Positions 73 to 64,000 of a stretch of 64,000 nt of DNA are shown here, piece after piece. The DNA is from Rhynchopus sp. YZ270_cl-10. Its lineage: Eukaryota. The first letter of the stretch is position 1, and every line of letters starts with the position of its first letter. A program made the translations under genes and the position numbers. The notes beneath the pieces were generated by a model. That model was not told the origin of the DNA and did not search any database. It saw only the letters and a program-made list of their open reading frames with translations. The stretch lies in NCBI GenBank assembly GCA_964035575.1, contig OZ037841.1:558001-622000 (forward strand), in the 5' to 3' direction.

Positions 73-869
73 TTTTTGGTAGTCACGAAATTTTCTAAAA
101 TAATTTTTTTTTTTCAAAAAAAAGGGGGAGAAAAAGAAGGAGGAAGAAGAGGAAGAGGAAGAGGAGGAGGAGGAAGAAAAACACGAGAGTGTTTTTTTTT
201 TTTTTTTTTGTGTATTCTGTGAGGGTATTAAGGTGTTTATTGAAGAGGTGGCCCTATAAGATAAGAGGATTATGTCGTGATGGAAGAAGTATAAAAAGGG
301 GAGGAGAGTAGAAGAATTTTTTTTTTTCATGCTGGTTCGTTCAAAAAGAAATTTTAAAAGGGGATGTGAGGGGGGGGAGAGGAGGAGGTGGGATGTTTTG
401 TTGTGTCGCTAAGCTGAGGTGTTTAAATGATCTTCTCCAATCCATTTGAAAACGTCCCCAGGCACACAACAGAGGAGAGAATAGAGGGGGGTGAGGGAGA
501 GACAAAAAAACACTTAAAAAGATGAATGCACCACTCTGCGCAAAACATCTCAAAAAAACTATCCACACAAACCACATTCTATAGAAGGATTTTTACTTTT
601 TGATCAGTGGGATTTTTTTTTTTGAAGAAAAAAAAAAATGCGTTGACTAAAGTAAAAAGGTACCTTCGCTTTTACCAAGGCAAAAGGTAGAATGAACACA
701 ATAACGTACCACACGCGAACACAAGAGAGTCCAACCCCTGAGTTAACAGATGCTACCCAAAAAAAATCAAAGGGGACGGTTTATAAAAAAAAAGTGGATA
801 AAGTGAACCTTATGCTATGCTTAGTCACCTTGATCACAAATAAACCATGGTGAGATACCTCACCTTTAC

Positions 870-1044
870 ACGACGGGACCCAGTGACAAGTGACAAGTGA
901 AATCACATGTCATTTCACTTGTCACAATATGACAAAAAAGCCACTTGTCATGACAAGTGACTTTCTAGGGGATATAGGCTATTTACTTGTCATTTACTTG
1001 TCATTTTCACTTGTTACTTGTCACGTGTCACCGGGTCCCGTCGT
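870..1044. mobile_element. MITE-like element with TIRs and internal GTGACAA heptamer repeats
   Basis: Left ACGACGGGACCCAGTGACAAGTGACAAGT is the near-perfect inverse of right ACTTGTCACGTGTCACCGGGTCCCGTCGT. TSD unclear (possibly AC). Confidence 0.7.
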
Positions 1045-1456
1045 ACCCACCGTTGCCTTCCCCCCCCCCCCACCTCGGTGGGGGGGTCTGCACTCAATGT
1101 CGGATGACTTTTTATATAATCCGTTCGTTTAAATGCAGCTGTCATAGAAGAAGTCTTTACTACCATTTTTCAAAATTTCCATATTCCAAAAAAAACACAC
1201 AACAAAAATTTATTAGATGAACCTAAGCTTCATTGCTTCACCTTTTTTCAAAAAAATTAAAAAGAACTTTAAAAAAAGTGATAACACATCACCGAGTGAC
1301 GAAAGCTCTGGGGTATGAATATAACCGCAGATGGCTCACTTTGCTGACTTAAAAAAAAAAAATGCTAGGAGGAATCTATTCAAAAAATAATAAAAAGAGG
1401 GAGAGAGAGCAAGGCTTTGTGAGACGTCACTAAGCCTTGCAGTTTTTAGCTACGTT

Positions 1457-2097: not shown

Positions 2098-3559
2098 GCT
2101 ACGTTCGCAAAAAAAAAAAGGGGGGATGGGGGGAGACGGGGGGGTTTTGTAACTACAGTGAATCCAAGAACATCAGGGGGGGTTAAAGAGAAAAAGTTCA
2201 TAAGATGAATTTAACCTAGCCCCTCGTTGCTGAATCACCTAAGTAAAAACACACCATATTTTTTTGCACCCAAAAAAGACTCACATTCTTGTAAGAGAGG
2301 TTGAAAACTACAAACTCCTCAACGCTCATTGGACGCAGGCACTGAAAAGGGGGGGGAATAACATAGCTCCACGAAATACGATTTACCCACAAGGGTACAC
2401 ACTGCAACACAAAAAACTCAGAACAAATAGTAAATGCGCCTCACAAAACATCCCTTTTTTTGTTCTCCCTGCAACCAATGGATGTATGCGTGACGCACCT
2501 CACCTCACCTCGCCCATTCTACGAGAGTACAAAGGCAGTATCATCTTTAAAAAAAACATGATGGAGGAGCAGAAACACACTGTAATACGAATTCACATAA
2601 AAATGTTAAAAAAAACTCACAGAAAACCTACAAAAAAAAAGCGAGACGCAACATGAAATAGCACTGAGCACACTGTACACTGTACACTTTCACATACACA
2701 CTTAAAAGGTGAAGCATATTTTTTTTTTTTTTGCCTTGGCACACCCATAGTTTCCAATCGCGCCAGAAACTATGCTCACATTAGGATACCACACAATCAA
2801 AAAAAATACCCTATATTAGAGAGAAAAACGAATCGACGTAACCTGAGATACACACCACCCCAAAGAACGCAACCCAAAAGATGCTGTGATACGTTTGAGG
2901 ACACGGGAACAACAGTTTTACTTTTTTTTTGCACGGAACGAAACAAAAAAAAACACACACACACACAAGGTTAAGATCCACCGAATCGCGTTGTTTTAGC
3001 CACACCTTAATAAAAAACGGAGAGAGGACTCCACTGGGCCATCAAAATAATAACAAAATGGTATGAAAACCCTCTCTGTGCATAAGAAGAAAAAAAAAGG
3101 TCGTGCGCACACATCAAAAAACACAAGTACAATAAAATTTAAACACGTTCACATTTTGGATGTAAGTCAAAAAAGGGGTGCAAGTAGAAAGGTAACGTTA
3201 AAAGGGGGAGAGGGGGGGGTGCAATGCGCCATTGCGGACGCGGTGGTTTAAAAATAAAATAAAAAAAAAAGTTTTTGTAAGATGAAACTAAGCCTCTCAG
3301 CCCCTTTGCTTTCAAAGTATAAAAAATGCGTTTGTATTTTCTTGATTTTTGCATTTTTTTGGCATTTTTAAAAACCCCCCGCTGGGGGTGGGGAAAAGGG
3401 GTGTCGTTACGACATGGTACTGTTCACTCAAACTTCGTTGATGCATTTCGTGAAGTCAAAAAAAAAAAAAAAACAAGTAATTGCTATCGGAAAAAAAACG
3501 GGGTGTGATGTGGAATTCCATCCTGTAGAAATAATCTACAATAAGCCCAGCTTTCTGCT

Positions 3560-3870
3560 CTTCTGCAGGTATGCTAACGCTCTTCGTACACTGCCAGACC
3601 CACTGGGACTCCAGCATCTGAAACGTTCAAGAAGGGGGGCTGTCCTCTTCGTCCAGCACCATCTGCTCGATAGCGTTGTTGGACGCCCGCTCGGCAGGCT
3701 GGGCGTGGTCCAGCTCGTTTTTGTCCACAGGCTCCCCACATTGTAGTCGTCGTTGGAGCAGTGCGGAAGGAACACAGAATGCACAGACTACAACACATCG
3801 ATCACACCAGCAAATCGCCAGGATGCTACGGTGGTTTCGAAAATCGCGCGGAGGTTTCCACAGCACACCC
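3560..3870 (-). pseudogene. Degenerate piggyBac-like transposase C-terminal fragment
   Basis: Across shifting frames ILAICWCDRCVV, PHCSNDDYNVG and VDKNE resemble the piggyBac motifs ILxxxWxDxxxV and PxxIxDYNxxMGGVDxxD. GC-richer island with no intact ORF. Confidence 0.45.
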
Positions 3871-5625
3871 GCTTTTTTCTTAGCAATTACTTGTCCTTGT
3901 TGTTATTGTTGTTTTCAACCACCTTCCTTCAACCCTTGTAGGATCAGTTGTTATTTTTTTCGCGAAAACATGAAATTACACATTTCAAGAGAACAAATTA
4001 AAAAGGGTCCTTATTTGCATTTTTGGGATCCGCCCGTGCAGTGGTGGGGTCAATCTGGAAAATTGGACAATTTTTTGAGCACTTAAATTTTGAGAAATAT
4101 GAGCCCGGTTCCTTATACGTGGGGCCCATTTTCGGCTAAAATTTTCCTCAAAATCTGGTTTTGTAAAATTGACCCTTTACTCCCCCCCCACATCGATTTC
4201 AATACTATACCTTACTTCACCTACGGTTGCCCTTACAGGGGGGTGAAGGAAGGTAAGTTGAAAAAAAAACTCCCTTCTCCTTCTTTGATATTCGGGAAGC
4301 GATGTGCAACTAAGCGGTCTGAACACATTCAGAAATAGAAGGCTTCCATCATTTTTTTTTTTAGCATCGACCATCACCTGTCCGAGGACGGGTTCTGTAC
4401 ACAAGGTCGCCCGAAGGCTAATGAATTTCAAAAAAAAAAAAATTCTTTGAAATAGGGGAAGATATACAATGTCAGTACCAGTCTCCACTCGACGTTCAAG
4501 ATCACAAAATACAATACACTGTTTCGCAGCAAGCACACGCTTGGGAGATGGGGGGGAAAAAAAAGAAAAATTGTAAGATGCCTCCCCTACAACATCTTAT
4601 GAAAAGAAAAGTTGAACTGTAAGATGAACCTAAAACTGTCATGCTTTTAAAAAATGTGGCAAAAAAAAAGGGGGGGAGAGGGGAGGTTCAAAATTGTGCC
4701 AGTTAACTTACCATATTTTTACTAAAAATGGTTTGGGGATGTATGGGGGCACTGCAGTGCACTTCAGAGTCGGTCTGTGCAGTATGAGGGGACTTGAGAA
4801 ATGCCTTTCAAAAAGAAAAGACTTCATCGGCAGATTAAAATGGTGGTTTAGTAGCGTTATATCGTGTTGGGTTCCCTAGTTTTTTTTTTTACTTTTCTCT
4901 CTTCAAAAGATTGATTGAAAAGTAGTTGCGCACAGCGGTGCAATCCTCACTTCATCATTGAAGGGGGAAAAAATCATACATTGAAAGGTGTCGGAAAGAG
5001 CAACAAAAAAAAAGTCTTCTCAGTAATTAGCGAATGCTGTCTGAGAAGGAAAAAAAAGAAGAAGAAAACTGTAAGATGCATGCACCTCTCGTGCACACAC
5101 ATCCCCAAAAAACACCTCTCAAGCAAAAGAAAAGTTTATAAGATGACCCTAAGCCTCTCTGTGCTTAGTCTGATTAGATTACTTAATGTTTTGAACATTA
5201 AGTAATCTGCAGTGCTTAGTCACCTTAGAAAATCCCCTCTCCCTCCATTAACCATAAATTTTTGTACCCGACAGTTTTTCGCGTGAAGAGTGTCTGTGGG
5301 AAAATGGAGAGACGGGAGAGGGAATGAAGAAGGGGGGAGAAAAAGGTTACTAAGGTATGTGTTGTATTCGACGGAATACTCAAAATATTCAATCGGAAAA
5401 TCGTTGAAGAAAAGTTAAGAAAGGTTAAAAAAAGGTTGAACCTAAGCCTCTCTGTGCACGCTTAGTCTTATTAGAGTACTGTTTTGAACATTGGTTATTC
5501 ATCAATATTTTTTGTTGTTCCTTTTTGCTTTTTGTTTTTGCCTAAGCCTCTCTGTGCACGCTTAGTTACCTTAAAACTATGCACATTGCAACATATTTTT
5601 TCGCTCTTTTTTTTGTTGAATCATT

Positions 5626-5755
5626 GGTGTTCCCGAAAGGGCCCATATTGACAGGTCCTTGACATGTCCCCGACAGTGGGGGGTGCGTTAAAATGACACA
5701 CCCCCCCTATATTGACAGGTCCTTGACATGTCCTCGACAGGTGTTCGGTAACACC
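5626..5755. mobile_element. Short MITE
   Basis: TIR GGTGTTCCCGAA / TTCGGTAACACC flanked by direct repeat AATCATT. Internal direct repeat ATATTGACAGGTCCTTGACATGTCC twice. Confidence 0.75.
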
Positions 5756-6608
5756 AATCATTCCCAAAAAGAGAATCACGCCACATCGTTTATTTCCCGT
5801 AGGCATTTGACACATAACAAAATATCACATAAAAATAACACGCTAAAGGATACCGCATCTTGTATAATCACGTTATGCAAACGGGGAGAACAGGGTGAGT
5901 AAACAAGCCACCTAACTCCTTGCGTTCGATGACCACCCATACGCAGGTATCAAAATTTAGAGAAAAAAATGTAAAAAAAATAAAACGATGGAAGCTGATA
6001 AATAGAGAGAGTGCATCCAACAACTTTTCAAGAATTTTTTTCGTATTTTTTAGAACGTCCTGAAATTTTTGCGGAGTTACCCAAATGTACACGTACAGAA
6101 CACAGTCTGGTAGAGAGAAAACACACGATCACAGGAATCACACTAGGGGTAGGTGACGCCGTCTGGGTCCGGTAATTTAAAATAGGGGTTGCAAGACAAA
6201 CCTAAACTCAGTGCTTTCAATGTCACCCTATCAAAAACCCCTCCTGTCTTTGCTTAGTTATCCACCCGAAATTTTTGGAGGAATTTAGTGGGAGTTGGGT
6301 AGACCAAACTCCACCAAAATTTCAGGCAAAAATCAGGTAGTAGGTACACTACGAACGTCATAAACATTAATTCATTTTCCTCCCACTTTCGTGGGTACAA
6401 AGATGCCTATGAAAAGGCTCAAAATGCCCAACAAAAAAAAGAGACATTTTGATCTATGAGTGGAGAGAAGCGAGACATACAAGGGAAACACTCTGGGTTG
6501 AGGATTCCAGCCCTCTAAAAAAAAAAGAGGGAAACGTGAAAAAAGAAAAGAAAAGAAAAAAAAAAAAGAAAAAATACAAGAATGGGCACGCTCCACGACA
6601 GACTAATA

Positions 6609-6737
6609 GTCAGGGGGGCTACTAGCGGAACTACAAGTCGTAACAACTAGTGCTAAACTAGTAGTGTAACTGGGGTAACACTAGTCCTAAAACACGAGTC
6701 ATTTGTACTAGTAGCATATACTAGTAGTCCCCCTGAC
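6609..6737. mobile_element. TA-flanked MITE (degenerate relative at ~11089-11190)
   Basis: TIR GTCAGGGGGCTACTAG / CTAGTAGTCCCCCTGAC with TA on both sides; internal ACTAGT repeats. Confidence 0.7.
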
Positions 6738-8694
6738 TAGCCCGCCGTGTGTACAATTTCAACCCCCGAGGGTGAATTTTTTTTCTCTCTTCTGTATATA
6801 TTGCGGGTAATGATTCACTTTTGTGTTCGCTTTCTTTTATTTTGCTAAGTTTTATTTTCCCCCCTTTTTATATGACCCCTGCGATCAATAACAGAAGGTG
6901 AAAAAAAACCCCTTAAGACACGAATAATCCTTGTCCCAAATGAGACAGGTTCTGTACCAAAAAAAGAAGGGAAAAATATCACTGTGTAAAAGAAAGATTG
7001 AAAGCGCAAACACACCTCACACAACACGGAAGCAGAGGGCAGACTCTGTAAATAGTTTCCTCCGATACGGTCGCCAAATCACCCCCCCTCCAGCAGGGGG
7101 TAAATTGAGCAATCGAGAGAAAAAAAAATGTTGGGGTACTTTTGAACTATACTCTATAGTTTGAAATACCCCAAAAACAATGAAAATTTTGTAAGATGGG
7201 GTGTGCCTTTTGTGTACATACATCTTAAACAAAAGTGAGGTTGATCATTGATAGTGCAAACCCCCTCTGGGAAGCAGGTACTGAACAAAAGAAAACGAAA
7301 CCTTTGAGAAAAGGTACTTTGAAAACTTGGTTGTATTAGTGCTCCACTATACTAAACACTTTTACGTCACCGCAGACGAGCGCGATGATGATGTTTTTTT
7401 TAATTGATTCGTCCCTTCACTTTACCCCCCTGATTGCATCAAAGAAAGCTAACTTTGTAAGATGAATGTGTCTTTTCTCTCTCGTGCACATTGAAAAAGT
7501 TGGCAAAATGAACCTAACCTTCTTAGCTAGCTTCGAAAGAGGGGAGAGATAGAGAGAGAGAGACTACGCACAGCGGGGGGGATACCGTACGCAGGTATAC
7601 AGGCACTACCTTGGTTTTTTCATATCATGTAACGATTTCAAATAAAATGTGAAGCGCGCAGCGAAAAATCAAAAAAAAAAATTGTGAGGGAGGTTTTTTT
7701 TTGGGGGCTATTACCCATCCGCGACCGAGGTGTCGACGCACCACGTCGGCTGGTAATATAGGGGGTGTGTTGAAAATAAAAAAAACAATGTGAGTAGAGG
7801 GAGGGATGGGACAATATGTTCTGCGTGGATACACGCGGTTCGATGTGGTGATGATGTAGGTTTTTTTTCTTCTCCAAAAAAATTAAAAAATGGAAAACGT
7901 GAAAGATGGAAGGGGCCGTGCAGGGGACAATAAACACATCTCTGAAAGACGAAAAAAAATGCCCCTTTCCTTTTTCAAATCAATTATTTCAAATAAAATT
8001 GGGGGGAAAACGCAGTTGGGAGGGGGGAAGAGAGAGAGAGGTTAAAAAATGTAGTGCAACCGCTCCTGCTGACGCAGATGCAGGTGAAAAAGTAGGACTG
8101 ATAACGCTTCGAAACGGACAGACACTGTTGGAATGAGTGAGACTCTTACGTGAACGCTCTGAGGGGTGTACCTCCTCTTGGAGACTATTATCCATACAGG
8201 GTGCTAGATCAAATGCAAAATATTTGATGTAACTTCCCTATGTACAATCAAGATCCTTTTTTTCTTAACTTTTTGTTGTATCGCTTCAAAGAAAAAGAGA
8301 AGTTGAAAGTGCAAACGTCTCACCGTTCATCGGCAGATAGACGCTGGTTTTCCGCTGGGTTATTTAACCCCAGAGTGCACTTCATTGGTGGCACGAAGAA
8401 AAAATATTTTCCTTATAGGATCCTTGTATATGATGTCAGACTTTTGATCACAATCGTTTTCAGGGGAATGAAAAGAAAAGTTTTAAAATAACCCTGAGAC
8501 TCGTGCTTAGTCTGATTAGATTACTTAATGTTTTGAACATTGGTTATTCATCAATCTTTTTTGTTGTATTTTTGGATCCTTTTTGTTTTGTTTTTGTTTT
8601 TTTGTACTTGCTTACGTGCTTAGTCACCAAAATAAATATGGTTATCCAGCTACATATAGGATGCAGCTTAAAATCCATCGATACTGAAAGAAAA

Positions 8695-9630
8695 AAGTAT
8701 TTTCATCATATGCAATCAATAAATTGATAGTATATGGTGAGGGATCAACAAAAATGGTCCCATCTTTCTTTTTATGGTGTGTGTTTTGCAAAACGTAGAA
8801 AAGAAAAGTAAAATGCTTCGTGCACAAGTTGAAACTTCAGTAGATTGGTTTCTGATATTAACCCTGTTTCAGTCCTAAGAATCATACAGTTGTATTCAAA
8901 AGGGTGGACATCTTCAGTGATTTCCCTTTAAATGGTGGGTGAATATCGTGAAACCGATGTTCGTGTGAACATTTGGTACCTTCTACTTCAGTTTTTTGTT
9001 TCGGGAATACACAAAATACAAAAGTTTTTTTTTTTCTTTTTTCTTATTCCTTTCTCTGTCCTTACTGGATGTAATGTCTGATCACCAGGAGGAAGAGTAA
9101 CCTAAAGAGTCTTGGTCTTGATGGCTGCCGTGTATACGTAAAGTATTCCGTGCAATAATTGCTACCAATCCAAACAAGAAAAAAAAAAAGAAAAATCAAG
9201 CAACAAAATACTTCCTAGAGCGTTTTAAAGAGACCGGAGAGTGTTGACCAAGAAACTCGAAAACTGAAATCGCCTCAAAAAATACAAAAAGTGAATTTGA
9301 AAGTACCAAACATTGCAACGAACGTTGGGCACTGAAATAGGTGAAGAGGTGCAACAATATATGATGGAGGGAAAAAAACTGGCAAATTTGGAAGGGTTTC
9401 AAAAAAAAAAACAAAAAACATACGCGCAAAACGGAGAGACAAATCATAAAGACCCCTGCCTCCTCTCTATAGTGTGTCCTTGTTCATGCTTGGTTACTCT
9501 GTTGTGCAAACCCTTGGACAAAACAGTATTTCATAATATTATGCAGTCAATAAATTGATAGCACAGCAGGGATCGCTAAAAATGATCCCATCTTTCTTTT
9601 TATGCGGTATGTTTTGCAAACCCTTGCGCA
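8695..9630 (+). repeat. Two diverged ~100-bp direct repeats (8695-8800 and 9525-9630)
   Basis: Shared AGTATTTTCAT..ATGCA(A/G)TCAATAAATTGATAG...CCCATCTTTCTTTTTATG..TGTTTTGCAAA. Confidence 0.7.
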
Positions 9631-9646
9631 AAAATAATAAATATCA

Positions 9647-9714
9647 TGGGATGGCTGAAAGGGTGATTCGCACTTCTTGCGTACGTTGCGCACCCTCCCC
9701 CATTCAGCCACACC
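9647..9714. mobile_element. TGGTGTGGCTGA-family MITE (relatives at 28436-28592 and 37951-38084)
   Basis: Ends TGGGATGGCTGAA / TTCAGCCACACCA. Internal GATTCGCACTTCTTGCG shared with the 37951 copy. Confidence 0.6.
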
Positions 9715-12700
9715 ATTATCAGTTTTGTAATTCCATAAAAGCTTAAAAGCTTCTTCCGTGCATTGTGTATGTGGGTGTGTGGAGGGAAATTTTTGATGAA
9801 CCTAAGCCTTACAGTACTGAGTCACCTTCAGGAAAATGGTGGAAACTGCGTTTTTGTTTTTGTTTTCGTTTTCGTTTTCGTTTTCAAAAGACAATAAATA
9901 AATAAATGGGTGACCATTGTCAGCAAAGTTTGAAAGATGAATATACGCCTTTCTTTATTTCTTCTTCTTCTTTTTTTTTGAAAAAAAAATAAAATAAAAT
10001 CACATACAAAATACACACAAAACCAGCTAACCCGAATCGAACTATTTTTCAGAAATGAGATGGGAAACACGGGGGCAGGAAATGATGGGCACATGCAGAA
10101 GAAGAGGGTGACGATAAAGAAATGCCTCACCACCAGTGTGTAGCATATGAACTCCTTACGAACGCCTTCTTGTTCATTTAAAAAAAAAAACGAAATATTA
10201 ATTTCATACTTCCAAAGCAAGAGAGTACAAAGGATGCCCAATGCAGACACCTCCAATATTTTTTATTAAAAAAACTCAGCGGGTTTATCAAAAATGAGGA
10301 GGTAGGCACACAAAAAATGTTTCAGATATTATTTTCAATCGAAAAAAAAAAAAAAAAAAGAATCGGCGAACAACAAAAAATTTGAAAGGGTTTGTAAAGT
10401 GCTGTACCTAACAAACCGGGTGGGCACCGAAACAAAACAAAACAAAAACAAAAAAAAAAACTTAAAAGAAGTGCTGACAAAGAAGCTCGAAACACCAGAC
10501 ACTCCATGGGGCCAGCAAAACCCCTCAAAGAGTTTTTAACCCTAATTTGAAAGAAGAAAAAAAAAAATATAAGATGAGCGCAAGCCTTTCGTGCTTCACT
10601 ACCTAACAAAGATGGAAGGTGCGAAGAATACAACACAACTCACATTCAGAAAAAAATACCTCCAGTTGCAAAAAGAAAACAAAAGAAAACGTAAATAAAG
10701 GCAAAATGATGAGAGGAGCAGGGGGTCCAGTTTAAGTGGAAACCCCCAAAACTGCTTGGGGCGTGGGGTGGGTGGTTGCGTCAGGAGGCAAGAGGGGAAA
10801 CCACCACATGGGTGTGTGAGTGTTGTCACATTTTGTTTTTGTACTTATGGGGAATATGATGGGATGTGGTAAAAATGCACTTCGTTGTACTGATATGTTT
10901 AGATACATTTTTTTTGTGGTCGACAATCGCCTACGAGGACCCACTGTAGTGGGCTTAAAAAAAAGAGAGAGAGGGAGGGAGGGAGAGAGAGGTTGGCTGG
11001 AATGAAGAACAGATGAAAGTGCAGAAACGCCTCACCGTACATACGGGCGGACGAGAGAACTGCCCCTCTCTGGGTGCACAGCGGACCAGTCAGGGGGGTC
11101 TGCTAGTACCGCGACTGGTCCAAAATGACTGTGTTTTACGACTAATTTTGGTACTGTAGAGTACAGTAGTTCCACCAGTAGTCCCTGAGTAATCCGTCGG
11201 GTGGGTTATCTAACCCCCCCCAGGCCAACATGAGAGCACATTGGTAACCACCAAAATCACCAAAAAGAAGAACAGCAAAAAAAAAAAAAAACACTGATCC
11301 TCTCGTGCCTTGAAATCACCTTGAAATAAATAAAAGTACCAAAAATAGACGCACATTTGCACACACAGCACGATTTTTTTGCCATCTGGATTCGGGGCAA
11401 AGCAAAAGTACCTTTTACATTTTAAAAAAACACACTGTTTACGATAAGAAAAAAAATGAAGGTTTGGTGTTGCTTCTCAGGCAGCACGCGCCTTCGGAAG
11501 AGTAATACGGAAGCAAAATGCACCGGCACGATGGGATATCAATCCCACAAGGGTTGGTGGCACATCATGATTTTTCCTTTAAAAAATGACGAAAAAATTG
11601 AAAACCAAAAAAAGTGTTGATTTTAGACAACTATCACGGGATAGTCTATCTACGGAAACCACAAAAAAACAATAACACACACACTTGAAGGAGAGTGAAA
11701 GAAGAAAAAAAAAGTTTATAAGATGAGCCCTAAGCCTCACCGTGCTTAAGTCACCTTTGATCACGATGGGTTTTTTTTTAATTGCACAGCAAGCGTGGGT
11801 ATTCCACAAGGGGGCGTTGTGAAATTCTACGGTGGAGAAAACTTGTTTCATATACTAACTATTCTACTGAATAGAAGGTATAATAGGGTGCACTAAATGT
11901 ACCCAAACTTTTGTTTACGGTGGAGAAAACGAAAACACTTTTAAGATGAATCCGATACCCTCTCCCTCTCGTTTGTTTTTGTGCGTAAAGTGTGTAATAA
12001 ATATTTCTGTGGTGATATTTTTTACTGCACTACGCTCCCCACTGACTGGCAGTGAAGAGGAAACCTCTTTGAGACCAAACAAAAGTAAGTAAAGTTGATG
12101 CAGGCACCTCCCGCTGACCCATTGCACGATGCCTGCTGGATGAACAGCATGGTCAGGGTCAAAAGTCTCCCCTTATCATCCCCCCTATCGTCACTTCAGC
12201 TCTCAAATGAGTGAGATAACCTCTTTCACAGAAAGGTGAATTTGCCTTTCAGCACCTCCTTTTTTTTAAAAAAGTTTTCTCCTGAAGAGAAAAAAAATGG
12301 GGGGGGGGGGGGGGAAAGGGGGGGTGTGATTCTAGCAATGTAAAAAATACGGCGCGCAAAATAAAATAATTTGGATGACATCTCGGATTCATTACTTTTT
12401 TGATAATCTGTGTGGTGTATGCGGTGAAGAAAATAACCTGACTTTGTGGTTTTACCGTTGATTTACAACGGTGAAACCACAACGTAAAAACCACAAGCCA
12501 AGTCATTTTACTTTTACCTTCATCGCCGCCGTTCAGGCAGTCTTCACCATCCTTTTTGTCTTTTTAAATTTTTGGATGTGTTTTTTTTGCAACTTTACGC
12601 AAAAACTGCTGTTCCTAAAATGGTCCAAAGTATTTGATTTTTTTTTTACTAAAATGCAGCGCCAAAAAAAGAAGAAAAGGGTAATAAGATGATGTGCAAG

Positions 12701-12894
12701 CCTCTCTGCGCATTGTGCTTAAATTTCACCTTGGTCACCTTTTAAAAGGAGGGAAAGTTGAGAGTACAGACGTCATCTTTGAACGACTGCAGACAGAAAA
12801 AAACAAAAATAAAAACAAGTTCTTTTGAGACACTGCTTGGGAAGCAGGCACATCAGGAGGGGGGGTAAAATAAAAGTAAAATAAAGAGATGTTC

Positions 12895-13017
12895 ACCTGA
12901 TTTGTACCCCACGTATAGGCGAGTACAGGCGCGTATAGGGCCGTATAGGGCCGTATAGGACTGTATACGCGCCTGTACGTGGCCTGTACGCGCCTATACG
13001 CGGGGTAAAGATCAGGT
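12895..13017. mobile_element. Foldback/MITE-like element built from 11-bp units
   Basis: ACCTGATTTGTACCCCACGTATAGGCG ... CGCCTATACGCGGGGTAAAGATCAGGT are inverted ends. Internal CGTATAGGGC-type units invert at the centre. Confidence 0.65.
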
Positions 13018-17012: not shown

Positions 17013-17184
17013 GACACAATGCTCCTGTTTTCTGAACAAAAAAAATTTTTTTTCTGTTTCCATGGTTTGTGTCTGTTTATTGTATCAACAATACGCGAGA
17101 GGAAAGGTTCTGGCTACTTTAGTGTTACCTAAAATAGTATACATCCACAGACAGCTTTGTACATTTTTTTTTTTTCTTCTGCTT

Positions 17185-19209: not shown

Positions 19210-24431
<5,222 letters not shown>

Positions 24432-53300: not shown

Positions 53301-55653
53301 TCCATCATTCTATCAAAGTTTTTTTTTTCACTTTTTCGAGGAAATATTTCCACTGGAAAAAATTTTTGGGTAGGATTTTTTGCCCGTTTTTATAGGTTGT
53401 GGGAGGGAAAATTCGTAGGTGACTTATTGCGGCGAAGGTCACGCATGTCAGCAATCACACTATGTGCACCATAGTTTGATACACTTCTCACGTTATCGCA
53501 GGTCCGGGAGGCGACGGCGCCGACGATTCCTGTGTTGGCAACAGGGTGATCGTCAGAGGTGCAGGTGCGCTCGTGCTGGGTGATGCGACAACCATCACCG
53601 TCTTGCACCGCACACACCCTCCATGCACATAAGGAACCGGCACACAAGGGTCATTCGGGTGCCTGTGCGGTTCGAGACGCGGAAGGAAAAATGTGGAGGA
53701 TGAAGGACTGCCACGTTACCGTCTCCTTTAGGTCATCCAAGCTGTTAAACTCGGCACCAGTGACCACTTGTCTTTGCATGTTTAGCAAACAGTGTGTAAT
53801 TTGTGACCCTAGAACTATAAATTTTTCGAAAAATGCAAAAAAAATGACCCCATTTTTCCTCAAAAAACCACCCAAATTTTTTTTTCCAGCGGCAAAAATT
53901 TCTTCGAAAAAGTGAAAAAAAAAACTTTGATAGAATGATGGAAAAATTGGCAAAATATTGATAGAATGGTGGAAAAATTAACTTTTGTGAGCCGAATGAA
54001 GGAAAAATTATAGTGACTTTGATAGAATGATGGAAAAATTTTATTTTGTGAGCCGAATGATGGAAAAATTACTTTTTGTGAGCCGAATAAAGGTTTTCCC
54101 TTTTTTTTTTTTTGTTTGTTTTTCTTTTCTGTGCGGCAACCGGGAGCTAAAACATAAAAAGCCTCTCGTGTTCAGTTACCTTAAAACCCTGATAATTGAT
54201 TGTGGAGAGCAACCATCATTTCCGACGCTACATTAACCACAACACACATACCCATCAGCCCGTTTGCGGACCTGCGTTTGAAGAGCTGGAGGGCTGCCTC
54301 ATTGCCGAGAGTCATGAAGCGGGTGTCGTTTGTCAGAATCGAGAGCACCGTGAACTCGATGCTGAGCGAGCCCGCACCTGCCAAGGAGGCCACTGTGGTT
54401 TCACCCCTGGGCACACCCCTACGCAGGTTCACAGCACCGTAAGGGATGCCGGATGTGGTGCGGAAGGCGGGGGAAAGCCTTGTGCCCAGGTCCTCTGCCA
54501 AGCCTAGCAGCTCGCCGTTGTACCCAGGTACAAAGGCAGACCGTTTAGCGTGCTCCGGCAGCCAGTCCACCAGCTCCGTACCGTACTCTGCAAAGATATG
54601 AGCGGAGAGAAGCCCACCCAACACCCGAATCGTTGTCTCAAACAGAGACACTGTTGTGTCGATATCAAATTTTTCTGGAAAGCTTTCGATGACGAGCCGC
54701 ACCCCAGCTTGAAACCCCGCGAGATCCTTCATCACAATGTACGTATCGAGCGAGTCAATCAACGTCAATGACGGTACATCAACAAAACCAAACCCCGACC
54801 CTTCACAGGTTAACGGCTTTAAATCTGGCGCTGGATGTGCGTGCTTCATGTATCCACCCATACCATGCTCGAACATATCTTTTACATCTTGCGAGCCAAT
54901 AGCGGTGTTGTCTTTGTCGAGAAGGGGGGTGGATGATGACGTCTCGTTGGTTTCTGCAGCTTCGGTCACCTCAGTGCATTTCTCTGTTGTGGCTTCCAGC
55001 TCTTCGACGTATTGGTTGTAACCTTCGTCCGAGATCACTATGGGGTCGATGATGAGGACGAGTCCTTCGTATTCACATGGTGTTTTCTCAGATATAGAGA
55101 TGAATTCAGAGACTCCACGAGAAGGTGAAAATCGTGGAGTGAATCCGGCATTAAGAAGAATAGGATAGGAGAAATGCACAATGGTCATTTCGCCTTCACG
55201 TTGCCTGTTGTCGCAGGCATCCCCAGCGGTAAACTTTTGTGTTTCGATTTTAATAACGCCCATCAACCCCGCCCGCAATACCATATCAGGATACACCTTC
55301 GTCCCCTCCAATTTATGCGTAAAATGCAAGCGAATAAACGCCCTAACGTCCTTCTGTCCTTGCTTTGAAGATAGAACTGCCTTATTGAGTTTGGTGCTTA
55401 CCTTTGTCTGCGGGGTTTCTATAACAGATCTACCCGAAAAATCCCCGATTTTAACCGGAACTGAGCTGTGGTACTGCTGCATACTCAACCGTTCGCACCA
55501 GCTGTACCGATACCCTTCTTTGTTGTGGTCCAGGCAGAGTGGAGAGGTGGAGGTGGAGGAGGTGGCTGTGTCCATCCCAGGTGTATGAAGCGACAGCGCG
55601 CTGAGTAGAACTGTGCACACCCGGGCCAAGTGGGAGCCCTTCTTTTCAAGCAT
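50301..55653 (-). CDS. EDEM-like GH47 alpha-1,2-mannosidase with N-terminal MRH-like lectin domain (~835 aa); exons 55653-54252, 52897-52622, 52268-51755, 51446-51269, 50441-50301
   Basis: GH47 motifs FETTIRVLGGLLSAH, DSFYEYLLK, YLLRPELIES, SFFLSETLKYLY and spliced VFSTEAH. GT-AG introns are in frame; the last exon is less certain. Confidence 0.9.
50852..51215. mobile_element. TA-flanked MITE in an intron of the GH47 gene
   Basis: TIR AAC(C)nTCTGCATAATATTAAATTA, TA on both sides; internal ATTTAATAATACGA repeats. Confidence 0.88.
53143..54100 (-). mobile_element. Mutator-like (MULE) deletion derivative in intron 1 of the GH47 gene
   Basis: ~190-bp near-perfect TIRs starting GGGAAAACCTTTATTCGGCTCAC, poly-T on both flanks. 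Internal broken ORF (TGAEFNSLDDLKETV...C....CAWRVCA...RITQHERTC) resembles the MuDR DNA-binding domain. Confidence 0.85.
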
Positions 55654-55729
55654 CTTTTATTTTTTTGGGAAAATGAGGCTTTCCGGTGCCGGTGTCTGTT
55701 GTGTGCTGTGGGAGTGGTAGAGGATGTAG

Positions 55730-57030
55730 CAGGCCTCAGGCGTATACCGGCCTTTTTTCGGGGTTTTTCGGGTCCGTATACCGAGTTTTTTCCCGTTTTT
55801 TTTTGGTGGTTTTGTGGGCATTTTGCGCTGGTTTTTCCAGATTAAATTATGATTTTTACCTTACTTTTGCCCAGAAAAATCCTTATTTTCGTTACGTGTA
55901 GGATTTTGTGTTTTCTCGTTATCATGTTGCCTGGGTACCCAGAATACCTGGGTACCAGAAAGTGATAGGAACTACAGTGTGTACAGTGTACAGTGTACAG
56001 TGTACAGTGTACAGTGTACAGTGTACAGTGTACAGTGTACAGTGTACAGTGTACAGTGTACAGTGTACAGTGTACAGTGTACAGTGTACAGTGTACAGTG
56101 TACAGTGTACAGTGTACAGTGTACAGTGTACAGTGTACAGTGTACAGTGTACAGTGTACAGTGTACAGTGTACAGTGTACAGTGTACAGTGTACAGTGTA
56201 CAGTGTACAGTGTACAGTGTACAGTGTACAGTGTATAAAACCATAAAACAGTGTATTTCTGTAATTCAAACACTGGAAAAATGTAACAAAGCACTGTTTT
56301 CCCCTCGAGAACAGCCGTTTTCCTTCACTCGTGTTTCCTTTGCGTGCAAAGAAAACAAGAGTGAAGACAAACGACTTTTCTCTCGAGAAAAAATAGCTAT
56401 TACCCGCGGTTGAAAAAAAAAAAAGAACCGGTCATGGCACCAAAGGTTCCTGGCGAAGCCACGGTACGCAACATTTCTAAAAAATGTTGCAGAAAATGGT
56501 ACTGCGTTGGTGATTTTCGTCAGGAAAATTCCCGCAGCGAGAAATCGATTCCATAAATTATTGTCAAAATTTTACTTCACATATTTTCTAAAACGAAAGT
56601 TTCTGGCGAAGCCACGGTACGCAACATTTCCAAAATTGCGCTTAGAATTACATATTTTTTGCAGCCAACCTGTCATGGGAAAGGTGGGATGCATGCTTGC
56701 GCCGCAGGCGCACGGTACGCTACTTTTTTCCCGCAGGCAGGGCGAACGCATAAAAAAAAGTTTGTTTGCCCTAAGCGTTTCTTCAAGAGGAAGGTTGAAC
56801 CTATGCAGAAATTTCCTGCCGCAGGTGGAGATTTTTTTTCCCCCTTTTCCTTTTTCTGCCTTTTTTGGGTTCTGCGAAGAGATTGCAACCCACAGTGGTG
56901 CCGCACAAAAACTTTAGTGGGGTCCACACCCACCCAAAAACCCACCAGTGAAAAACGGGAAAAAAAAACGGGAAAAAAAAGTTGAAATCCCAAAACCCGT
57001 ATACGTATACCACTCCTAGCGGTAGGCATG
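55730..57030. mobile_element. hAT-type non-autonomous element just upstream of the GH47 gene
   Basis: 8-bp direct repeat GGATGTAG at 55722-55729 and 57031-57038; imperfect TIR CAGGCCT / AGGCATG. Carries an inverted copy of the 1735-1880 module. Confidence 0.72.
55973..56234. repeat. (TACAGTG)n heptamer array, ~37 units
   Basis: Directly visible tandem array. Confidence 0.97.
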
Positions 57031-59337
57031 GGATGTAGTCAAAAATTTTTTTTTTTGAAAGTAGGGGAAATGAGGGAAATGAGGGCTTTATTTTTGAAAA
57101 AAATGAATGTTTTGTTTTGTACACTAATTTTGCACTCTCTCGGTGAAAAAAAAGGGCACACAAAAAAAAATGAACGGGGGAGGGGGGAAACTATTTGGTC
57201 ATACCATAATACTAATGGGAAAAACAAAGAAAACTTATAAAAAAAAAGTACACACACATCACATAATAAAACAGGAAAACGTGACGTCAAAAAGAGAGGT
57301 GTCCGGGCTCTGTGGGGGTGGTTGCTGTTTCCTTTGTTGTTAACAGTCTTGCCTCACCTCCGCAATCTGCCCGAACACCATTATTGTTATTTTTTTTTTA
57401 TTTTATTTTTTTGTTGTTGAAAATCTGCTAACGGTCAGCCACTAAGTGGTCTGTACGGTTATTGTTTATGCTGTATTGACACTCCCCAAGAAATGGGGTT
57501 CTTGAAATCAATTCGATGTGACCCACCCAAAAGGAGCTAGGACATGCACATCTCATCCTAGGAGAGATGAGGCACATGTGACCCATTTGTATCACGCCAC
57601 CACCACCCCACCAAAGAGATGGGGTTCTGATCAAACGACACCTTTTAACAGGCCAGGATATACACAGACGACACACCTGATCCCTTAGGGCAAAGAAAAA
57701 AATGATAGTTGTTGATGCAGGCACCTCCGACTGACCCACTGTATAATGTCAGCCATCCGTATGAAAGCATAAGTACCCTGCTGCCAACAACAGAAGGCTT
57801 TTTTTTAATACGATTACCTACAGTGCAGGCTGGTTTACTCACAAAGGTTCAAAAAGAAAAAAAATGTAAGATGCAATGTTCCTCTCGTGCACATATCAGA
57901 GGGAAAAGGACTTCCATGCGTCGCTGATAGTCGGAGTCACGCCTACGTTCGTAAGCTACAATAACATGAAAAAACTTGAAAAGATGAATGTGCCTCTCCA
58001 CACACATCTTTACTACTATCGTTATCGTGCTGGAACACACAATAAACGGCAAAAGTGCAAACGCTCACCGTTCATTGGCGGACTCAAGGCACTGCTTCTC
58101 CGAGGGTTATCGAACCCCCCAGAGAGCATTTCATTGGCATGCACACGGTTACCACCGAGGGAGGTTGCATGCAGCGAAAAGAAAAGAACAAAAAGGTAAT
58201 CAGATGAACCTAGGCCTATGATTTCGTCACCTTCGAGAGAAAATAAAAATTGGGGGAAAAGGGCTCTGACGAACCAGGGGGAGGAGGGGAGGAGCAAAGG
58301 GAAGAATTAGCATTGGAAAAGAAGAGCATGGGGGCGAGTGAGCATGCAGACAAAACGAAACTGTATGCTTTTTTGGTTTATTTTATTTTTTCTCTCTTGA
58401 TAAATTGTTGGAGTAGTGTAGTTGCCTCTTTGTGTTGCCACAGTTTGTGCAATCTTCACTTTCTACTCTGTCGTCTTGATGGCCTGAAATGGATGTAAAC
58501 GGAACTTCCTCTTGATTATTTTTTTGAAAAACTGATAAAGACCCAAACCCTCTCTGCTTACTCAAAGAAGATTGACACCACATACCACACACCATCCTCC
58601 GTTTTCTCGGACTACCGTTATTACGTCCCTCCCATCCCCGCTGTATTTATTTCCTCCTCATCAAACAAACAGGGACAGGAAGGAACTCCGGGATTAGATA
58701 AACCTCCCGGGTGAGATAGCTTTTATTTATTTTTTTATTTTTTTTGGCTGCGAAATTCACATTCCTTCATTATTGTGGCGACACCTACTATTTACCTATT
58801 GGTAAAGAACTCTGTACTAAATATGTCGAATCCTTTTTTGTACCACAATGTCAGAGTGTTTTCCAGGATCTGGCATTATTTTTTTTGGGTGGCATATTTT
58901 TTTTTTTTTAGGCCAAAAAAATTTTCCCCGCGCGGAAGGCCCCCTCTTAAACACCTGTACATGATTTACCCGAACAGGGCTTCCGCTTGGTTTTTGGTCT
59001 CAAAATTTGGTCCCCCCCGAGCTTTCTCCGAGCCCGAGCGGTCGTCGCGCGCGACCCCCTGCCAACCACAGTAGGGAGAGGGGAGGGAGTGGGCGCCGCA
59101 GGCGGAAAAAAATTGCACTATTCACAATTTTGGCGATGTGCAGTAGGAGCGCCGCAGGCGCACGGTACGCTACTTTTGCCCTATTTTCTGTGGCTTGTGA
59201 AGGTGGTGAACGGTTCGTGAAGGAAGCTGAGACGGCGATGGTGTTTGTTGGGTAGGTGCAGGCAATTCGAGCAACTCAGCGAGCCACGTGCTCTCCATGG
59301 TGGGGTCACAGGTCATACAACACTCAAAAAAAAAAAG

Positions 59338-59417
59338 AAAATCTTGGGTGGCATATATGCCACCCAAAAACCACCCCAAAAATCTTGGGTGGCATGTCAT
59401 GCCACCCAAAACCACCG
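59338..59417. repeat. Tandem pair of palindromes TTGGGTGGCAT(AT/GTC)ATGCCACCCAA
   Basis: First copy is a perfect 24-bp palindrome; the ~40-bp unit occurs twice. Confidence 0.85.
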
Positions 59418-62400
59418 TGGAAAACACTCTGCACAAGGTGTAGAGACGCAGATTGTCCTCAACCCTATGAACACGCTTTTCATACTTCGCACATTTCAGG
59501 CATAAATTTATTTTTTTTTTCGAGAACCCCCAGGGGGGGAATCTGTGGTCTATTTTATGATTTTTTTTTAGGGGGAAAAAAAAAATGAAAAAATTGACAA
59601 CGTGTGTGTCACCTTGAGTGATCTCCACGCATTTTTCTTTTCTTTTCCAGTCACATTAAACCACACGTATGTCCATCAAACACTAGGTTTATGGACAAAA
59701 AAAAATTGGGTAAAATAAACTAAGCTGCACAAAGCTTAGTTTATCTTACATAAAAACGTCATTCAACCCAGAAAAGAAAAGGGGGAAAAGACATCTTTTT
59801 TTTTTTGCAGACGGCACACATCTGAGAACAACCCGGCTATGTGTGGCAGAGATTAAAGAGACAAAAAAAAATTGAAACTCTCTGGTCTGACCCCAGTATA
59901 TAATGGATGCGAGTAATTTTGTTGGTTGAGAAAGAGGGGGGGGAGAAAAGAAAAAAAGAACGTTGAGAACAATGAGCGCTTCATAGCTCACGCCATTCTC
60001 AAAATCATCTTCACATTTTTTTTTTATATTTTGTTTGATATTTTTTTTTAGTGTAGCTGCCACAAAGACAGTCTTCACTGGCTTTTTTGATAATCTGAAA
60101 ACGGCCAACCCACCTTTTCGAAAAAAAAAAAAAAACAATGGTTTTTAAAAAATACTGTACTTCATCGCCCCCACACACACATAAGGGAGAGGGCTTGCCC
60201 TCTCCAATTACATACAATTGTCCACTGTGCTGGAGGAGACTGAGAAGTCAGCAGCACCACCGCCACAAGAAGTGACACTGAGGGCAGTAGTGCTTATGTT
60301 TTGGTTCCGAGCAGCAGCGAGCGCTGAAGACGCGACATCGGTACCTGCATCGTCGCAGGGTGTCGCAGCGACACCGACCCCACAGCAAGAGAGACACCTC
60401 CGCTGTGATGCCAATGCCGCCGCTGCCGACCGACTGGCCGACGACTGCGATGACTATTTGCATGGAGAAACTCCAGGATCGCATAAGAACTGTGCAAAGT
60501 GGGAAGCTCAACCTCACTAAAAACAACCAAGTTTTCAAAAAAAAAAAAAAAAAAAAAAGATGGTTTTCAAAAGCACCCCTCCATTTTTTTTGTGGAATTA
60601 CCGTTACAATTTGAGGTGCATTCTACAGTCGCCTGAGTAGTACCCACCTTTTGGTGGTCTAGGAATCTGTGGCCAATGCTTTGTACTAGAGAATTATATT
60701 ACAATACTGTTGTTTGAAGAAAGAAAAAAAAAAAAAGAAAAAAAAAAAAACGATAAAACCTACGCGCTTAGTCACCGTATACAATTAGCTGAAACACCCC
60801 ACAGTACCTACTCCTCTGTCGTGGGGGTTTTTTTTTTGTGTTGCGTCAACAATCGCCTAAGTACCTACCTTGGTTGGGGGTACCTAGACGGATGGTGGGG
60901 ATTTTTTCTCGTATCGAGCCGATCGAACCCTGGAGTGTTTTGCCACTGGGGGGGATGGAAAGGGAAAAAAAAACAAAGAGAAGTAACGCCTCACCGTTCG
61001 GCGGACGTAGGCACTGAAAAAAACAAAAACGAAAAAAAAAAAACACGAAAAACCTTCAAATCTTTACCACACCTTTGTGATAATAACAGAAAAAAAAAAA
61101 TGAATAATTAGCGTGATAGGCACAGCTTTTTCGAGCGTAAAATTAACTTTTTTTTTTTTCTCTGTTCGCGTTGCACTAAGGGAGAAGAAGGTCGCAAAAT
61201 GACCAGCAAACAAAAACACTAAAGACAAACGCAGGAACAGGCAACATTCCGCGGGGGGACTACCCAATAATTTAAAAAAAAATGCACAAAAAAAAAATGT
61301 CTTGAGAAGCATTTTGAAAGAGTACGACAACACTCTCCAGGAGGAACAACACGGCCGAAGTCTGCAGAAGGAGTGTCGGGTGAGTAGTGTATTACCCGCA
61401 ACACCACATATTTAATAGTTAGCGAACCAAACAGAGATATGAATAAAATGCAAATATAAAAAAAAAAAGGGAATAGTTATCGATGCAGGCTCCGACTGAC
61501 CCACGTACAATGCCAGCCATCCGGATGAAAGAGCAGTTGAAACGTGCCAAAACGCATCTCAGTAGAGCTCATGGTGAAAGCACCAAAAAAAAAAAAAAAG
61601 GAGATTTTTGAAGATGAACCCAAGCCTCATGCTCAGTCACCTAAAAAGGAGGAAGCTTTTTGATATTCTGTTTTTTTAGTGTAGCTGTCATTCAAACAGT
61701 CTTCACCTTTTATAGGGGGGGAATGTAGTGGCTAATAAGAAAAAGGGGGCGTGGGGGCGTGAATGGGTTTTTATGAAGTTTCTGATGTTTGCTTTGTGCT
61801 CTTTGTTTTGTTTTTTGTTTTGTCTTTTTTTTTGCAGGGTGTTTGAAGAAAACGAGTCGCAATATGGACAATGGACGGATCAGAATGAAAATCTTAGGCA
61901 CTCACCTTTGCTCCACGTGCCTCATGAGACAAGAAACGTCATGAAATACAAAGCCCTCTCGTGACAGTGTAACCAAATAAAGAACGTCAGGATGAACTTG
62001 AGAGAACTTTTTTTTTTCAGCAAACCCTGGTTGGGATATTTTTCAATGAAACTACATACTGAGTTCAAATACGAAAAGAATAGTGTATAGCAGACCACAC
62101 TAGGGTGGCTACACTAATACAACCAAGTTTTCAAAAAAAACAACTACAACAACTAAGAACGAGCTAGCATCAACTTGATGATTCGCACTATAACAAAAAA
62201 AAATTGTTTGACTATAAAAACTTGTAAGATGAATACAACTCCCTCACATATCACATCTTACAGACTAAATAAGGGGAGGAATTTAGCACGCACGGCACGC
62301 ACCTCCTTTCTCTTCCCCCCTTTTTTTTTGGTGTAAAAAAAAAAAAAAAGGGCTATCATTCTTTCTTGAGGAGTTGTGAAACAAGTTGCACCCAAAAGAA

Positions 62401-64000
62401 TAAGTTTCTCTCTCATCGAGTTATGTGAAACATATTCAAGGGAACAACAAACAACCAGAAAATCATGTGTGGAATGAAGGGAAAGACGTACTTTAAAAAA
62501 AAAAATGCACAATTCAAATACCGGAGCTGGTGTGCGACTGAAAGTCACAAAAAAAAATAAAATGGCATTTTTTGCCCAATCGCGCCTCCCTATATTTTGC
62601 AAGGTGAAAAAGAAAAGAAGAAAATTTTGCTTATCACTCAGTGGTGCTCCGGGGGAGGTCGATATTGACAGGTAGCTGACCGATTTCGTAAGCACCACTA
62701 AAAAAAAAAAAATTTACTCGACCCCACCTCGAGTATAATAGAAAAGCCTTCTGAACCGCCATTAAGGATCAGGTAATGGATGTCAGGGTATAAGATCGTA
62801 ACTGATACCTGAATCTCAAGAAAAAGAAATTTAAAAAAAAAATAATCAGAAATGATGAAAACTTGTATTGAAGAAGATAAGTGGGCCTGTACACATCCGG
62901 TTGGAGATTACGAGGAGATAACGTCCAAGGCCTGCGAACCAACAACAGGTAAGGATGATCAGGTGTGCACGGTTGTGTTTGGGGTAAAACGGTACAATAT
63001 TTTTTTGTGCTTTTTTTGGTTTTGCTGTCCGACGAATTCCCTTTTTCTTTCTTTTCTTTCGCAGAGTTTAGTAAAAAAACATGCTCAAAAAAAAATAAAC
63101 AAAAAAGAAAGACAGCAGAAATATGAGAGGGGGAAAAAAAAAGAAAGCTTTTTATAATATCAGCCTAAGCCTCACAGGGTAATCACCTTGAATAAATGGC
63201 AGCTGGTAATTTTACTTTTTTTTAGTAAATGGTTGGAATAGCGGAGTTGTCACCTGTGTTAGCAGCTCAACCTCTCTCTCGTGAAGCTTGCATAACAAAA
63301 GAGACTTTTTGAGGCCAAAGTGTAGCCTGTGTTTCGTCTCCTGCTCGCCCAAAAAAAGAGATAAAAATGAACGATTTTTTTTTTTTTTTTGAAAGAAAGA
63401 AAGATGGAGTTGTCCATGGACATCTCGTCTTTTGTATTTGTTGTGGGGTTTGGGAAGTGTAGGGCTACAGCTGCGTGCGTACAAGCGTACAAGCGTACAA
63501 GCGTGCCATGATGGGGAGGGAAAAGAAAAGAAAAAGTTTATGAGATGAACCTAAGCCTCTCGTGCTTAGTCACCTTGATCGGAATCAAAGTTTTTCGGAT
63601 GACGTTGTCAGCGGTCGGATGCCGGCCCCGGATGAAAGCACAAAGTGCCCTACAGCCAGCAATAAAAATGAAAGATGAAATGGGTTTGTCATGTCTGTCA
63701 TTCACTTCTTTTTTTTTGTTCAAAAAAAAAAGGGAGAGAAAAGAACAATGCAACATCCTGGACAAAGAGGGAAATTCGGACTATCGTGATTTATTTTATT
63801 TTTTGCTCACACGATTTTGGGTCGCTTCGAAAGGAGAATTGGTCGGAAAGATGAACCTAAGCTCGCTTAGTCACCTCAGAACAATGTCAATATAAAAAAT
63901 ATTGTGTGGGAGATGAATGTGACTCTTGTGCACACACATCTTGAAAAATAAACAAGAAAACAAAACAAAAAAAAAATAAACAAACAGCAAGCAAAAGGGA

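Follow-up and report, generated by a model that had tools for sequence, protein, structure and literature searches.

A dense and strongly polarised hairpin micro-repeat in the non-coding DNA of the diplonemid Rhynchopus sp. YZ270_cl-10

Diplonemids transcribe their genes in long one-way clusters, and regulation has to act post-transcriptionally. Does a short hairpin scattered through such a cluster, nearly always in the same direction, belong to that regulation, or is it what a self-copying sequence has left behind? The question is raised by 64,000 nucleotides of Rhynchopus sp. YZ270_cl-10 (assembly GCA_964035575.1, contig OZ037841.1, positions 558,001 to 622,000; hereafter the window, whose own numbering we use throughout), in which a sequence-only reading had picked out a dispersed hairpin and proposed that it was either a pre-mRNA signal or a stem-loop by which a mobile element is recognised. 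We refer to this hairpin as family A. It is a real, dense and strongly polarised micro-repeat, apparently undescribed so far.

Our catalogue comprises 52 matches; they represent 50 loci, since inserts divide two copies, and amount to about one copy per 0.9 kb of non-coding DNA. All but one lie on the minus strand, which is the gene-sense strand, as the recognisable host genes (FYVE, two cold-shock genes, a cofilin-family gene, RCC1-like, TLDc and GH47) are all encoded there. Iterated nhmmer searches with seeds from the window gave 30 matches for subfamily A1, 15 for A2 and 4 for A3, which merged into 48, and none in the reversed window used as a decoy. Two covariance models run unfiltered, R1 for A1 and R2 for A2, contributed four further matches (E ≤0.06), after exclusion of weaker matches and of plus-strand echoes of strong minus-strand ones. 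A 10-base core had ten exact plus-strand matches and no minus-strand match, against an expectation of 0.04. The catalogue recovered 36 of the 37 positions named in the sequence-only reading, the remaining one (54159) being a degenerate copy discernible by eye only, and agreed with it that coding exons are free of the motif: none of the 52 matches falls within modelled coding sequence, which makes up 26% of the window (chance ca. 1e-7). Clustering is modest, with 11 gaps of 40 to 150 bases where 5.3 were expected (p = 0.009).

Neither Rfam nor the public contig sets offered a relative. Rfam gave no match in the whole window at the gathering score; with E allowed up to 5-10, the stretches 57600-64000, 5050-5240 and 63500-63660 yielded chance-level matches only, with no rRNA or spliceosomal RNA among them, and a tRNA search found none. 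The exact A1 sequence had no match in public metagenome and viral contig sets. A gapped pattern matched 13 loci in metagenomes, 4 in prokaryotes and none in viral contigs, each a single match in GC-rich DNA; we rejected these as unrelated, R1 scoring none of the 17 and R2 one, at E 0.97. In the literature searched no such element is described for diplonemids, the supplementary motif logos of PMC12621601, possibly relevant, falling outside that coverage. The word "hairpin" is absent from the main text and seven supplements of the Diplonema papillatum paper (PMC10161547), a set that probably does not include its repeat appendix.

The fold that had been described is seen in the best copies: on the gene strand they form 14 pairs, with seven in the basal stem and six in the upper one, an A left as a bulge, and a C-GAGA-G cap. 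The hairpin occupies ca. 35 bases and the whole element ca. 45. On the 3' side the stem is followed by a tail of 5-6 bases reading A-Y-A-A-A and then by a U-rich tract at +7 to +17, the 5' side being only mildly T-rich (logo of 36 copies); in the AYA triplet itself the first A is present in 23 of the 36, the pyrimidine in 32 and the last A in 21. Of the three subfamilies, A3 comprises just four copies and folds more poorly. The apex had been called conserved, and this did not survive the alignments: it is intact in 14 of the 52 matches and is the most indel-prone part, where most deletions and expansions fall. What persists best is the basal stem (AGRTG...TCATCT) with the short AYA tail and the U-tract. 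The start of A1 resembles a 5' splice site, with 21 occurrences in sense and 3 in antisense, and donor mimicry was considered and rejected, the A2 start being unlike a donor and real donors reading GTATG in 7 of 12 cases. The cap had also been compared with the sarcin-ricin loop of large-subunit rRNA, likewise a GAGA tetraloop closed by C-G. In contrast to that loop, family A has a continuous Watson-Crick stem beneath the cap, and the cap is what is most often lost; neither this likeness nor those to U2, U6 and group II domain 5 found any support in Rfam at E up to 10.

The strand ratio of 51:1 departs strongly from parity (p = 2e-14), and the claim that no copy is inverted has to be amended by a single case, an A2 copy at 51472-51492 on the plus strand (nhmmer, R2). 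It lies in GH47 intron 51447-51754, tail to tail with the minus-strand A2 copy at 51528-51568, which folds best among the A2 copies (z -7.0; nhmmer, fold, R2), and is probably a local fold-back duplication. U-tracts number 321 in sense and 212 in antisense (60:40), so the supply of targets does not account for the polarity. The hairpin folds better as RNA on the gene strand (39 copies better, 10 worse, the rest tied; mean -7.3 vs. -5.5 kcal/mol); folded as DNA, the same strand is better in 30 and worse in 16 (mean -2.8 vs. -2.6 kcal/mol). The polarity is seen in one window with one gene direction, where transcription and replication are not separable as its cause. Eight other short families, chosen from a self-BLAST and by eye, share it in 29 of 30 matches, and a MITE-like family (MITE, miniature inverted-repeat transposable element) in the same window occurs in both orientations.

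Both the excess of polarity over U-tract supply and the better RNA fold speak for a host-maintained cis-acting pre-mRNA element, perhaps a domesticated mobile element, in which the basal stem, AYA and U-tract would serve to label or protect polypyrimidine tracts and to steer splicing, 3' end formation or decay. The sequence-only reading had leaned in this direction and had adduced covarying stems. These exist between the subfamilies, three of the six pairs of the majority upper stem having both bases changed from A1 to A2 with pairing retained, but not within them, where the covariation score was reached by 389 of 500 shuffles for A1 (15 rows) and 437 of 500 for A2 (8 rows). In the stem cells of 26 A1 and 13 A2 copies, 332 show the majority state, 35 are changed but still paired and 62 are pair-breaking. 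RNAalifold returned no structure for A2, on a poor MAFFT alignment, and the basal stem only for A1. Transitions giving G-U outnumber those giving A-C by 29 to 17, in favour of a host element, although this excess is not significant (p = 0.10) and comes from alignments fitted to the model. The retention of the basal arms around interiors of widely differing length and sequence also favours it, while the decayed apex and the excess of pair-breaking changes do not. Compensation between subfamilies with decay within them suggests selection on source copies followed by decay after insertion; of selection on the inserted copies there is at most a weak sign.

The position of the copies relative to introns also bears on this reading. 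Five genes could be modelled as complete frames with 12 introns, all GT-AG, two of the genes having several nearby frame-keeping splice choices. The four GH47 introns match tblastn breaks against four homologues, and the spliced GH47 protein groups with that of D. papillatum in a supported clade (SH-like approximate likelihood ratio test, SH-aLRT, 96; a quick tree of 28 rows). Donors of the GTATG type and CA-rich acceptors are as reported for Diplonemidae in PMC12621601, and D. papillatum is reported to have one-way gene clusters and RNA interference (PMC10161547). Eight of the 12 introns hold 11 catalogued copies, two of them in a duplicated pair, a density of 2.0 per kb against 1.0, about twofold. 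Besides the two in GH47 intron 51447-51754, these minus-strand copies are an A3 copy at 21056-21092 in intron 20381-21191 (nhmmer, gene model); an A2 copy without its basal stem at 25326-25350 in the cold-shock gene intron 25278-25465 and its paralogue at 26727-26748 in intron 26673-26856 of the duplicated gene (both nhmmer, gene model); an A1 basal stem with the interior deleted at 31248-31280 in intron 31105-31299 and a near-perfect A1 copy at 31507-31543 in intron 31442-31946 (both nhmmer, R1, gene model); a degenerate A1 copy at 31896-31938, adjoining the donor of the same intron (R1, E 0.008); in GH47 intron 50442-51268, an A1 copy at 50478-50524 whose stem ends 48 bases before the acceptor (nhmmer, gene model), with an A3 copy at 50543-50578 directly 5' of it (nhmmer); and a near-perfect A1 copy at 52981-53025 in GH47 intron 52898-54251 (nhmmer, R1, gene model). 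Two degenerate A1 copies recognised by eye in the sequence, at 54159-54183 in this last intron and at 21338-21362 in intron 21293-21472 (both minus), stand outside the catalogue.

The intron density supports the host element, as do the several intronic copies that end 45-95 bases before the acceptor, a spacing that would also be expected from T-rich targeting. Against it, 4 of the 12 introns contain no catalogued copy, and the distance from copy to acceptor runs from 25 to ca. 670 bases (intron ends being approximate by a few bases), with intervening AGs in several cases. The first downstream AG lies no differently than after other U-tracts (p = 0.75), and, among the 321 U-tracts in sense, only 38 follow a copy. 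Near three single-exon genes the nearest copies are 200-850 bases from acceptors inferred by eye. Once family A is removed, no general rule of a hairpin before a U-tract is detectable (p = 0.37). Variable spacing, copy-free introns, the null result for AG and the U-tract count together argue that family A is no obligatory splicing signal. Of the proposed processing, splicing or decay signal, then, polarity and RNA fold stand, and we consider a host-maintained element unlikely.

The data are best fitted by the other proposal of the sequence-only reading, a stem-loop through which a mobile element is recognised, on the strength of the compensation between subfamilies and the decay within them. 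Near-identical 35-base copies sit in unrelated flanks, upstream similarity being at background save for a few pairs. We take family A, with moderate confidence, to be a very short non-autonomous mobile element whose source copies were selected as a hairpin and which spread by a transcription-linked, likely RNA, route and then decayed. The element would be copied via RNA, as part of the host polycistronic transcript. Source copies would be kept for stem length, basal stem and cap because these are read by the mobilising protein, most likely the reverse transcriptase of a non-LTR element (LTR, long terminal repeat), and new copies would land at sense-strand U-rich tracts. Direction would be set by coupling to transcription, or else inverted copies would be lost. 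After insertion most copies would decay, apex first, as hairpin tips do, and any host use would be secondary. The one-sided tail, the polarity and the RNA fold favour an RNA intermediate, the copying route being our inference from them. Sense-biased retroposon relics in directional clusters have a precedent in the short interspersed degenerate retroposons (SIDERs) of Leishmania (PMC2689281), and D. papillatum is reported to carry reverse transcriptase genes of the long interspersed nuclear element (LINE), spliced leader-associated conserved sequence (SLACS) and R2 types (PMC10161547).

Several observations weigh against this explanation. Flanking direct repeats, whose search had been proposed, gave a divided answer: a loose test found at least 8 bases in 7 of 36 copies against 1.9 expected (p = 0.003), but the end-anchored test did not (p = 0.31), none of the 36 scoring at least 9 and the best-preserved A1 copies having no repeat at all. 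There is no poly(A) beyond 3-6 A-rich bases, and the 5' end is sharp, unlike that of typical retroposons. No autonomous partner gene appeared among the 29 frames of the window scanned with Pfam. The polarity exceeds the roughly fourfold bias of SIDERs (PMC2689281) and is unexplained by target supply. Exact pairs of basal arms number 27 in sense (ca. 22 of them copies, the apex being intact in 5 of the 27) and 2 in antisense, with 1.4 expected, a better persistence than neutral decay alone would lead one to expect, though detection may favour the arms. A longer parent element ending in the motif was also sought in the window and rejected: upstream sharing was confined to a few pairs (21056/50543, 37627/57972, 31507/52981), with no common 5' extension.

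The lack of reliable duplications and the arm-like basal stem leave room for a DNA route. Family A could be a minimal MITE with the basal stem as inverted ends, or a single-strand hairpin moved by an HUH nuclease like the bacterial repetitive extragenic palindromes (REPs), its direction coming from the strand exposed by transcription or replication or from the purging of inverted copies. The basal arms do resemble terminal inverted repeats around variable interiors, the copy at 51528-51568 having a perfect 10-base arm; the flanks are T-rich and not reliably duplicated, the slight DNA fold advantage is on the same strand, and Helitron and Mutator-like (MULE) proteins have been reported in D. 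papillatum (PMC10161547). Size, bulge, subfamilies and mosaic arrays also recall REPs. Yet the tail is one-sided, the best copies lack a TA, 8- or 9-base duplication, the 5' tetranucleotide is not conserved, there is just one inverted pair, and the MITE-like family of the same window is unpolarised. We regard a DNA-level element as improbable.

A third reading takes the repeats as dispersed copies of a small structured RNA, of the single-hairpin H/ACA-like type, or relics of short non-conventional introns. AYA directly 3' of the stem is suggestive, as are the sense-only placement and clustering, reminiscent of intronic small RNAs, and hemistasiid diplonemids are reported to be rich in short base-paired non-canonical introns (PMC12621601). 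Trypanosomatid H/ACA-like RNAs likewise consist of one hairpin whose 5-8 base basal stem is directly followed by an ANA triplet, and they too lie clustered in polycistronic DNA. Family A, however, is too short (ca. 41 vs. 57-91 bases), its bulge of at most 2 bases leaves no 5-11 base pseudouridylation pocket, it has ACA or AUA in place of the AGA box (PMC2613932), it exists as dozens of decaying copies, and it has no Rfam match. As to introns, its ends (AAGRUG/CAUCUU, then pyrimidines) deviate from the Euglena code N3-CDG ... CHG-N5-6 plus purine given in PMC12501133, and it is absent from coding exons, although inserts that are spliced out cleanly should persist there. Either origin seems to us very unlikely.

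Two of the other polarised families are structured. Family B is a repeat of 85-90 bases with a terminal stem and inner hairpins, six of six copies on the gene strand (7248-7284, 8301-8388, 11180-11218, 13426-13487, 40395-40471 and 58048-58137, all minus), without a tRNA or Rfam match. Family C, a 60-68 base hairpin, contains an internal loop, carries ACA or AUA past the stem and is in sense in five of five copies (12082-12143, 30847-30904, 49947-50014, 57699-57766 and 61467-61530, all minus); in the copy at 57699 the triplet is 15 bases from the upper stem, like in H/ACA guides. Family C would be a better small-RNA candidate than family A. Six further short families of two to four copies each (11836/30588; 1122/52406/60039/61667; 19141/38098/62090; 9659/37967/38022; 8694/9523; 10911/18867/28774/60838) are in sense throughout, except for the copy at 62090.

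How does family A compare with known systems? SIDER1 and SIDER2 (Leishmania, ingi clade) are likewise abundant degenerate non-coding repeats in euglenozoan directional clusters, mostly in sense and in a T-rich context. Their sense bias is present here, in 51 of 52 matches, every modelled host gene being encoded on the minus strand, at 51:1 rather than ca. 4:1 (PMC2689281), and their 11-19 base duplications, to which the divided flank test applies, are themselves reported as recognisable in only 19% of LmSIDER2 (PMC2323293). Family A differs in being ca. 10 times shorter, so that by length and by its unshared flanks it could not accommodate the 79-base signature, which was not itself aligned, in consisting of a single hairpin plus U-tract with 3-6 A-rich 3' bases, and in occurring also in cis introns. 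Bacterial REPs and bacterial interspersed mosaic elements (BIMEs), associated with the HUH protein TnpA-REP, are bulged imperfect palindromes of 20-50 bases, extragenic, with subfamilies, mosaic arrays and a strand-unequal fold (PMC8266576). Family A, in contrast, is eukaryotic and nuclear, has no GTAG-type 5' motif (the upstream logo is mixed and T-rich) and forms arrays head to tail and not inverted pairs, and the 29 frames include no TnpA-REP gene. MITEs and the MITE-derived non-conventional introns of euglenids and hemistasiids are also short, with ends joined by pairing, and from the same phylum, but here the arms are 6-7 bases and imperfect (longer in 2 of 12 A2 copies), the tail is one-sided, and unlike such introns the copies have no reliable duplication and avoid coding exons, in a host whose modelled introns are all GT-AG. 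Judged from sequence, the setting is most like that of Leishmania SIDERs and the build like that of bacterial REPs, while some defining features of each are lacking.

The remaining copies, all on the minus strand, illustrate the range of decay. The A1 reference copy is at 63531-63576, with the stem at 63542-63576, the AYA tail and then the U-tract, and another near-perfect one is at 37417-37462 (both nhmmer, fold, R1). Found by both nhmmer and R1 were also A1 copies with an altered apex (788-831, 9793-9828, 14190-14239, 58191-58233), a shortened one (1204-1243), a GAAA loop (10561-10597), a five-base loop (11708-11757), an expanded interior (12675-12740), an apex grown into a GA run (28955-29012) or a deleted apex (63846-63876), as well as generally degenerate copies (2191-2240, 3269-3311, 7494-7533, 36642-36692, 63151-63189) and a 5' part (44099-44120). 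The copy at 61600-61642 (nhmmer, R1, flank test) has two wobble changes and a shortened apex and is flanked by an 8-base direct repeat. A 3' part of A1 at 4618-4646 was found by nhmmer, and R1 gave a weak, doubtful A1-like match at 59700-59749 (E 0.06).

In A2, the copy at 5064-5103 (nhmmer, fold, R2) has an intact apex and the one at 63906-63941 (nhmmer, fold, R2) an altered loop. Both nhmmer and R2 detected the copies at 30008-30047, 37702-37737 and 57859-57895, together with others that have an altered loop (7183-7225), a shortened body (37627-37650), a shortened apex (57972-58009) or a diverged interior (62217-62261). An expanded-apex copy (7451-7490) and a 3' fragment (14295-14313) come from nhmmer, a degenerate copy at 508-553 (E 0.03) and an A2-type basal stem with a different interior at 4564-4600 (E 0.006) from R2. 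The A3 copy at 41071-41105 (nhmmer, fold) completes the set with that at 61938-61973 (nhmmer, fold), which does not adopt the model fold (z 0.0).

In three A1 copies, also minus, the same point is interrupted by a hairpin that is AT-rich and, read on the plus strand, has a T-rich tail (5171-5206, 5468-5540 and 8513-8590); duplications of 10 to 27 bases border the inserts. One copy spans 5128-5226, with halves at 5128-5170 and 5207-5226 and a 10-base duplication around the insert (nhmmer, sequence); the next spans 5432-5572, with halves at 5432-5467 and 5541-5572 around a related insert (nhmmer); the third is a 3' half at 8474-8512 (nhmmer), its 5' half lying near 8590-8610, past the same insert. 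It is possible that the insert is an element targeting family A, or that a single event was later duplicated.

The surroundings are rich in other features. A piggyBac-type transposase fragment at 16086-17012 (Pfam DDE_Tnp_1_7, E 4e-44) is the sole plus-strand coding frame with a clear family, and no family A copy occurs around it, in 14313-21056. The tandem cold-shock genes at 25143-25606 and 26538-26997 (minus) have identical protein ends and one intron each, and a third cold-shock-like gene lies at ca. 28000-28400. Long inverted ends characterise fold-back or MITE-like elements at 870-1044, 6607-6739, 12430-12509, 12895-13017 and 53143-54100, the last with 240-base arms, 96% identical, inside GH47 intron 1; just upstream of GH47, 55923-56300 is a tandem array of a 7-base unit. 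A membrane-protein gene at 42242-43829 (minus) contains a 369-base internal duplication (96%) and, near 43100-43240, a frame change that is due either to a slip in assembly or to a short intron left out of the model. From the FYVE exon to what may be a short last exon near 3600-3770, 11 kb (3560-15060) contain no clear coding frame; this may be one long intron, and then most copies there would be intronic.

What the evidence supports is a repeat and its polarity, not a function. We would entertain, as speculation with the odds against it, that family A is a mobile RNA hairpin whose 45 bases would place it among the shortest interspersed elements of nuclear genomes, that its insertions follow the direction of transcription only, and that it has been co-opted along with several sister families as a dense structured code marking the polypyrimidine tracts of diplonemid polycistronic transcripts. 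Even without a host role, 45 bases, near-absolute polarity and no duplication pose the question of how such an element is copied. For poorly annotated genomes, family A offers a cheap marker of transcription direction. And in a lineage for which the literature searched describes no cis-acting RNA element, one repeat per kilobase, nearly always in sense, is obvious raw material for regulation, as SIDERs are in Leishmania.

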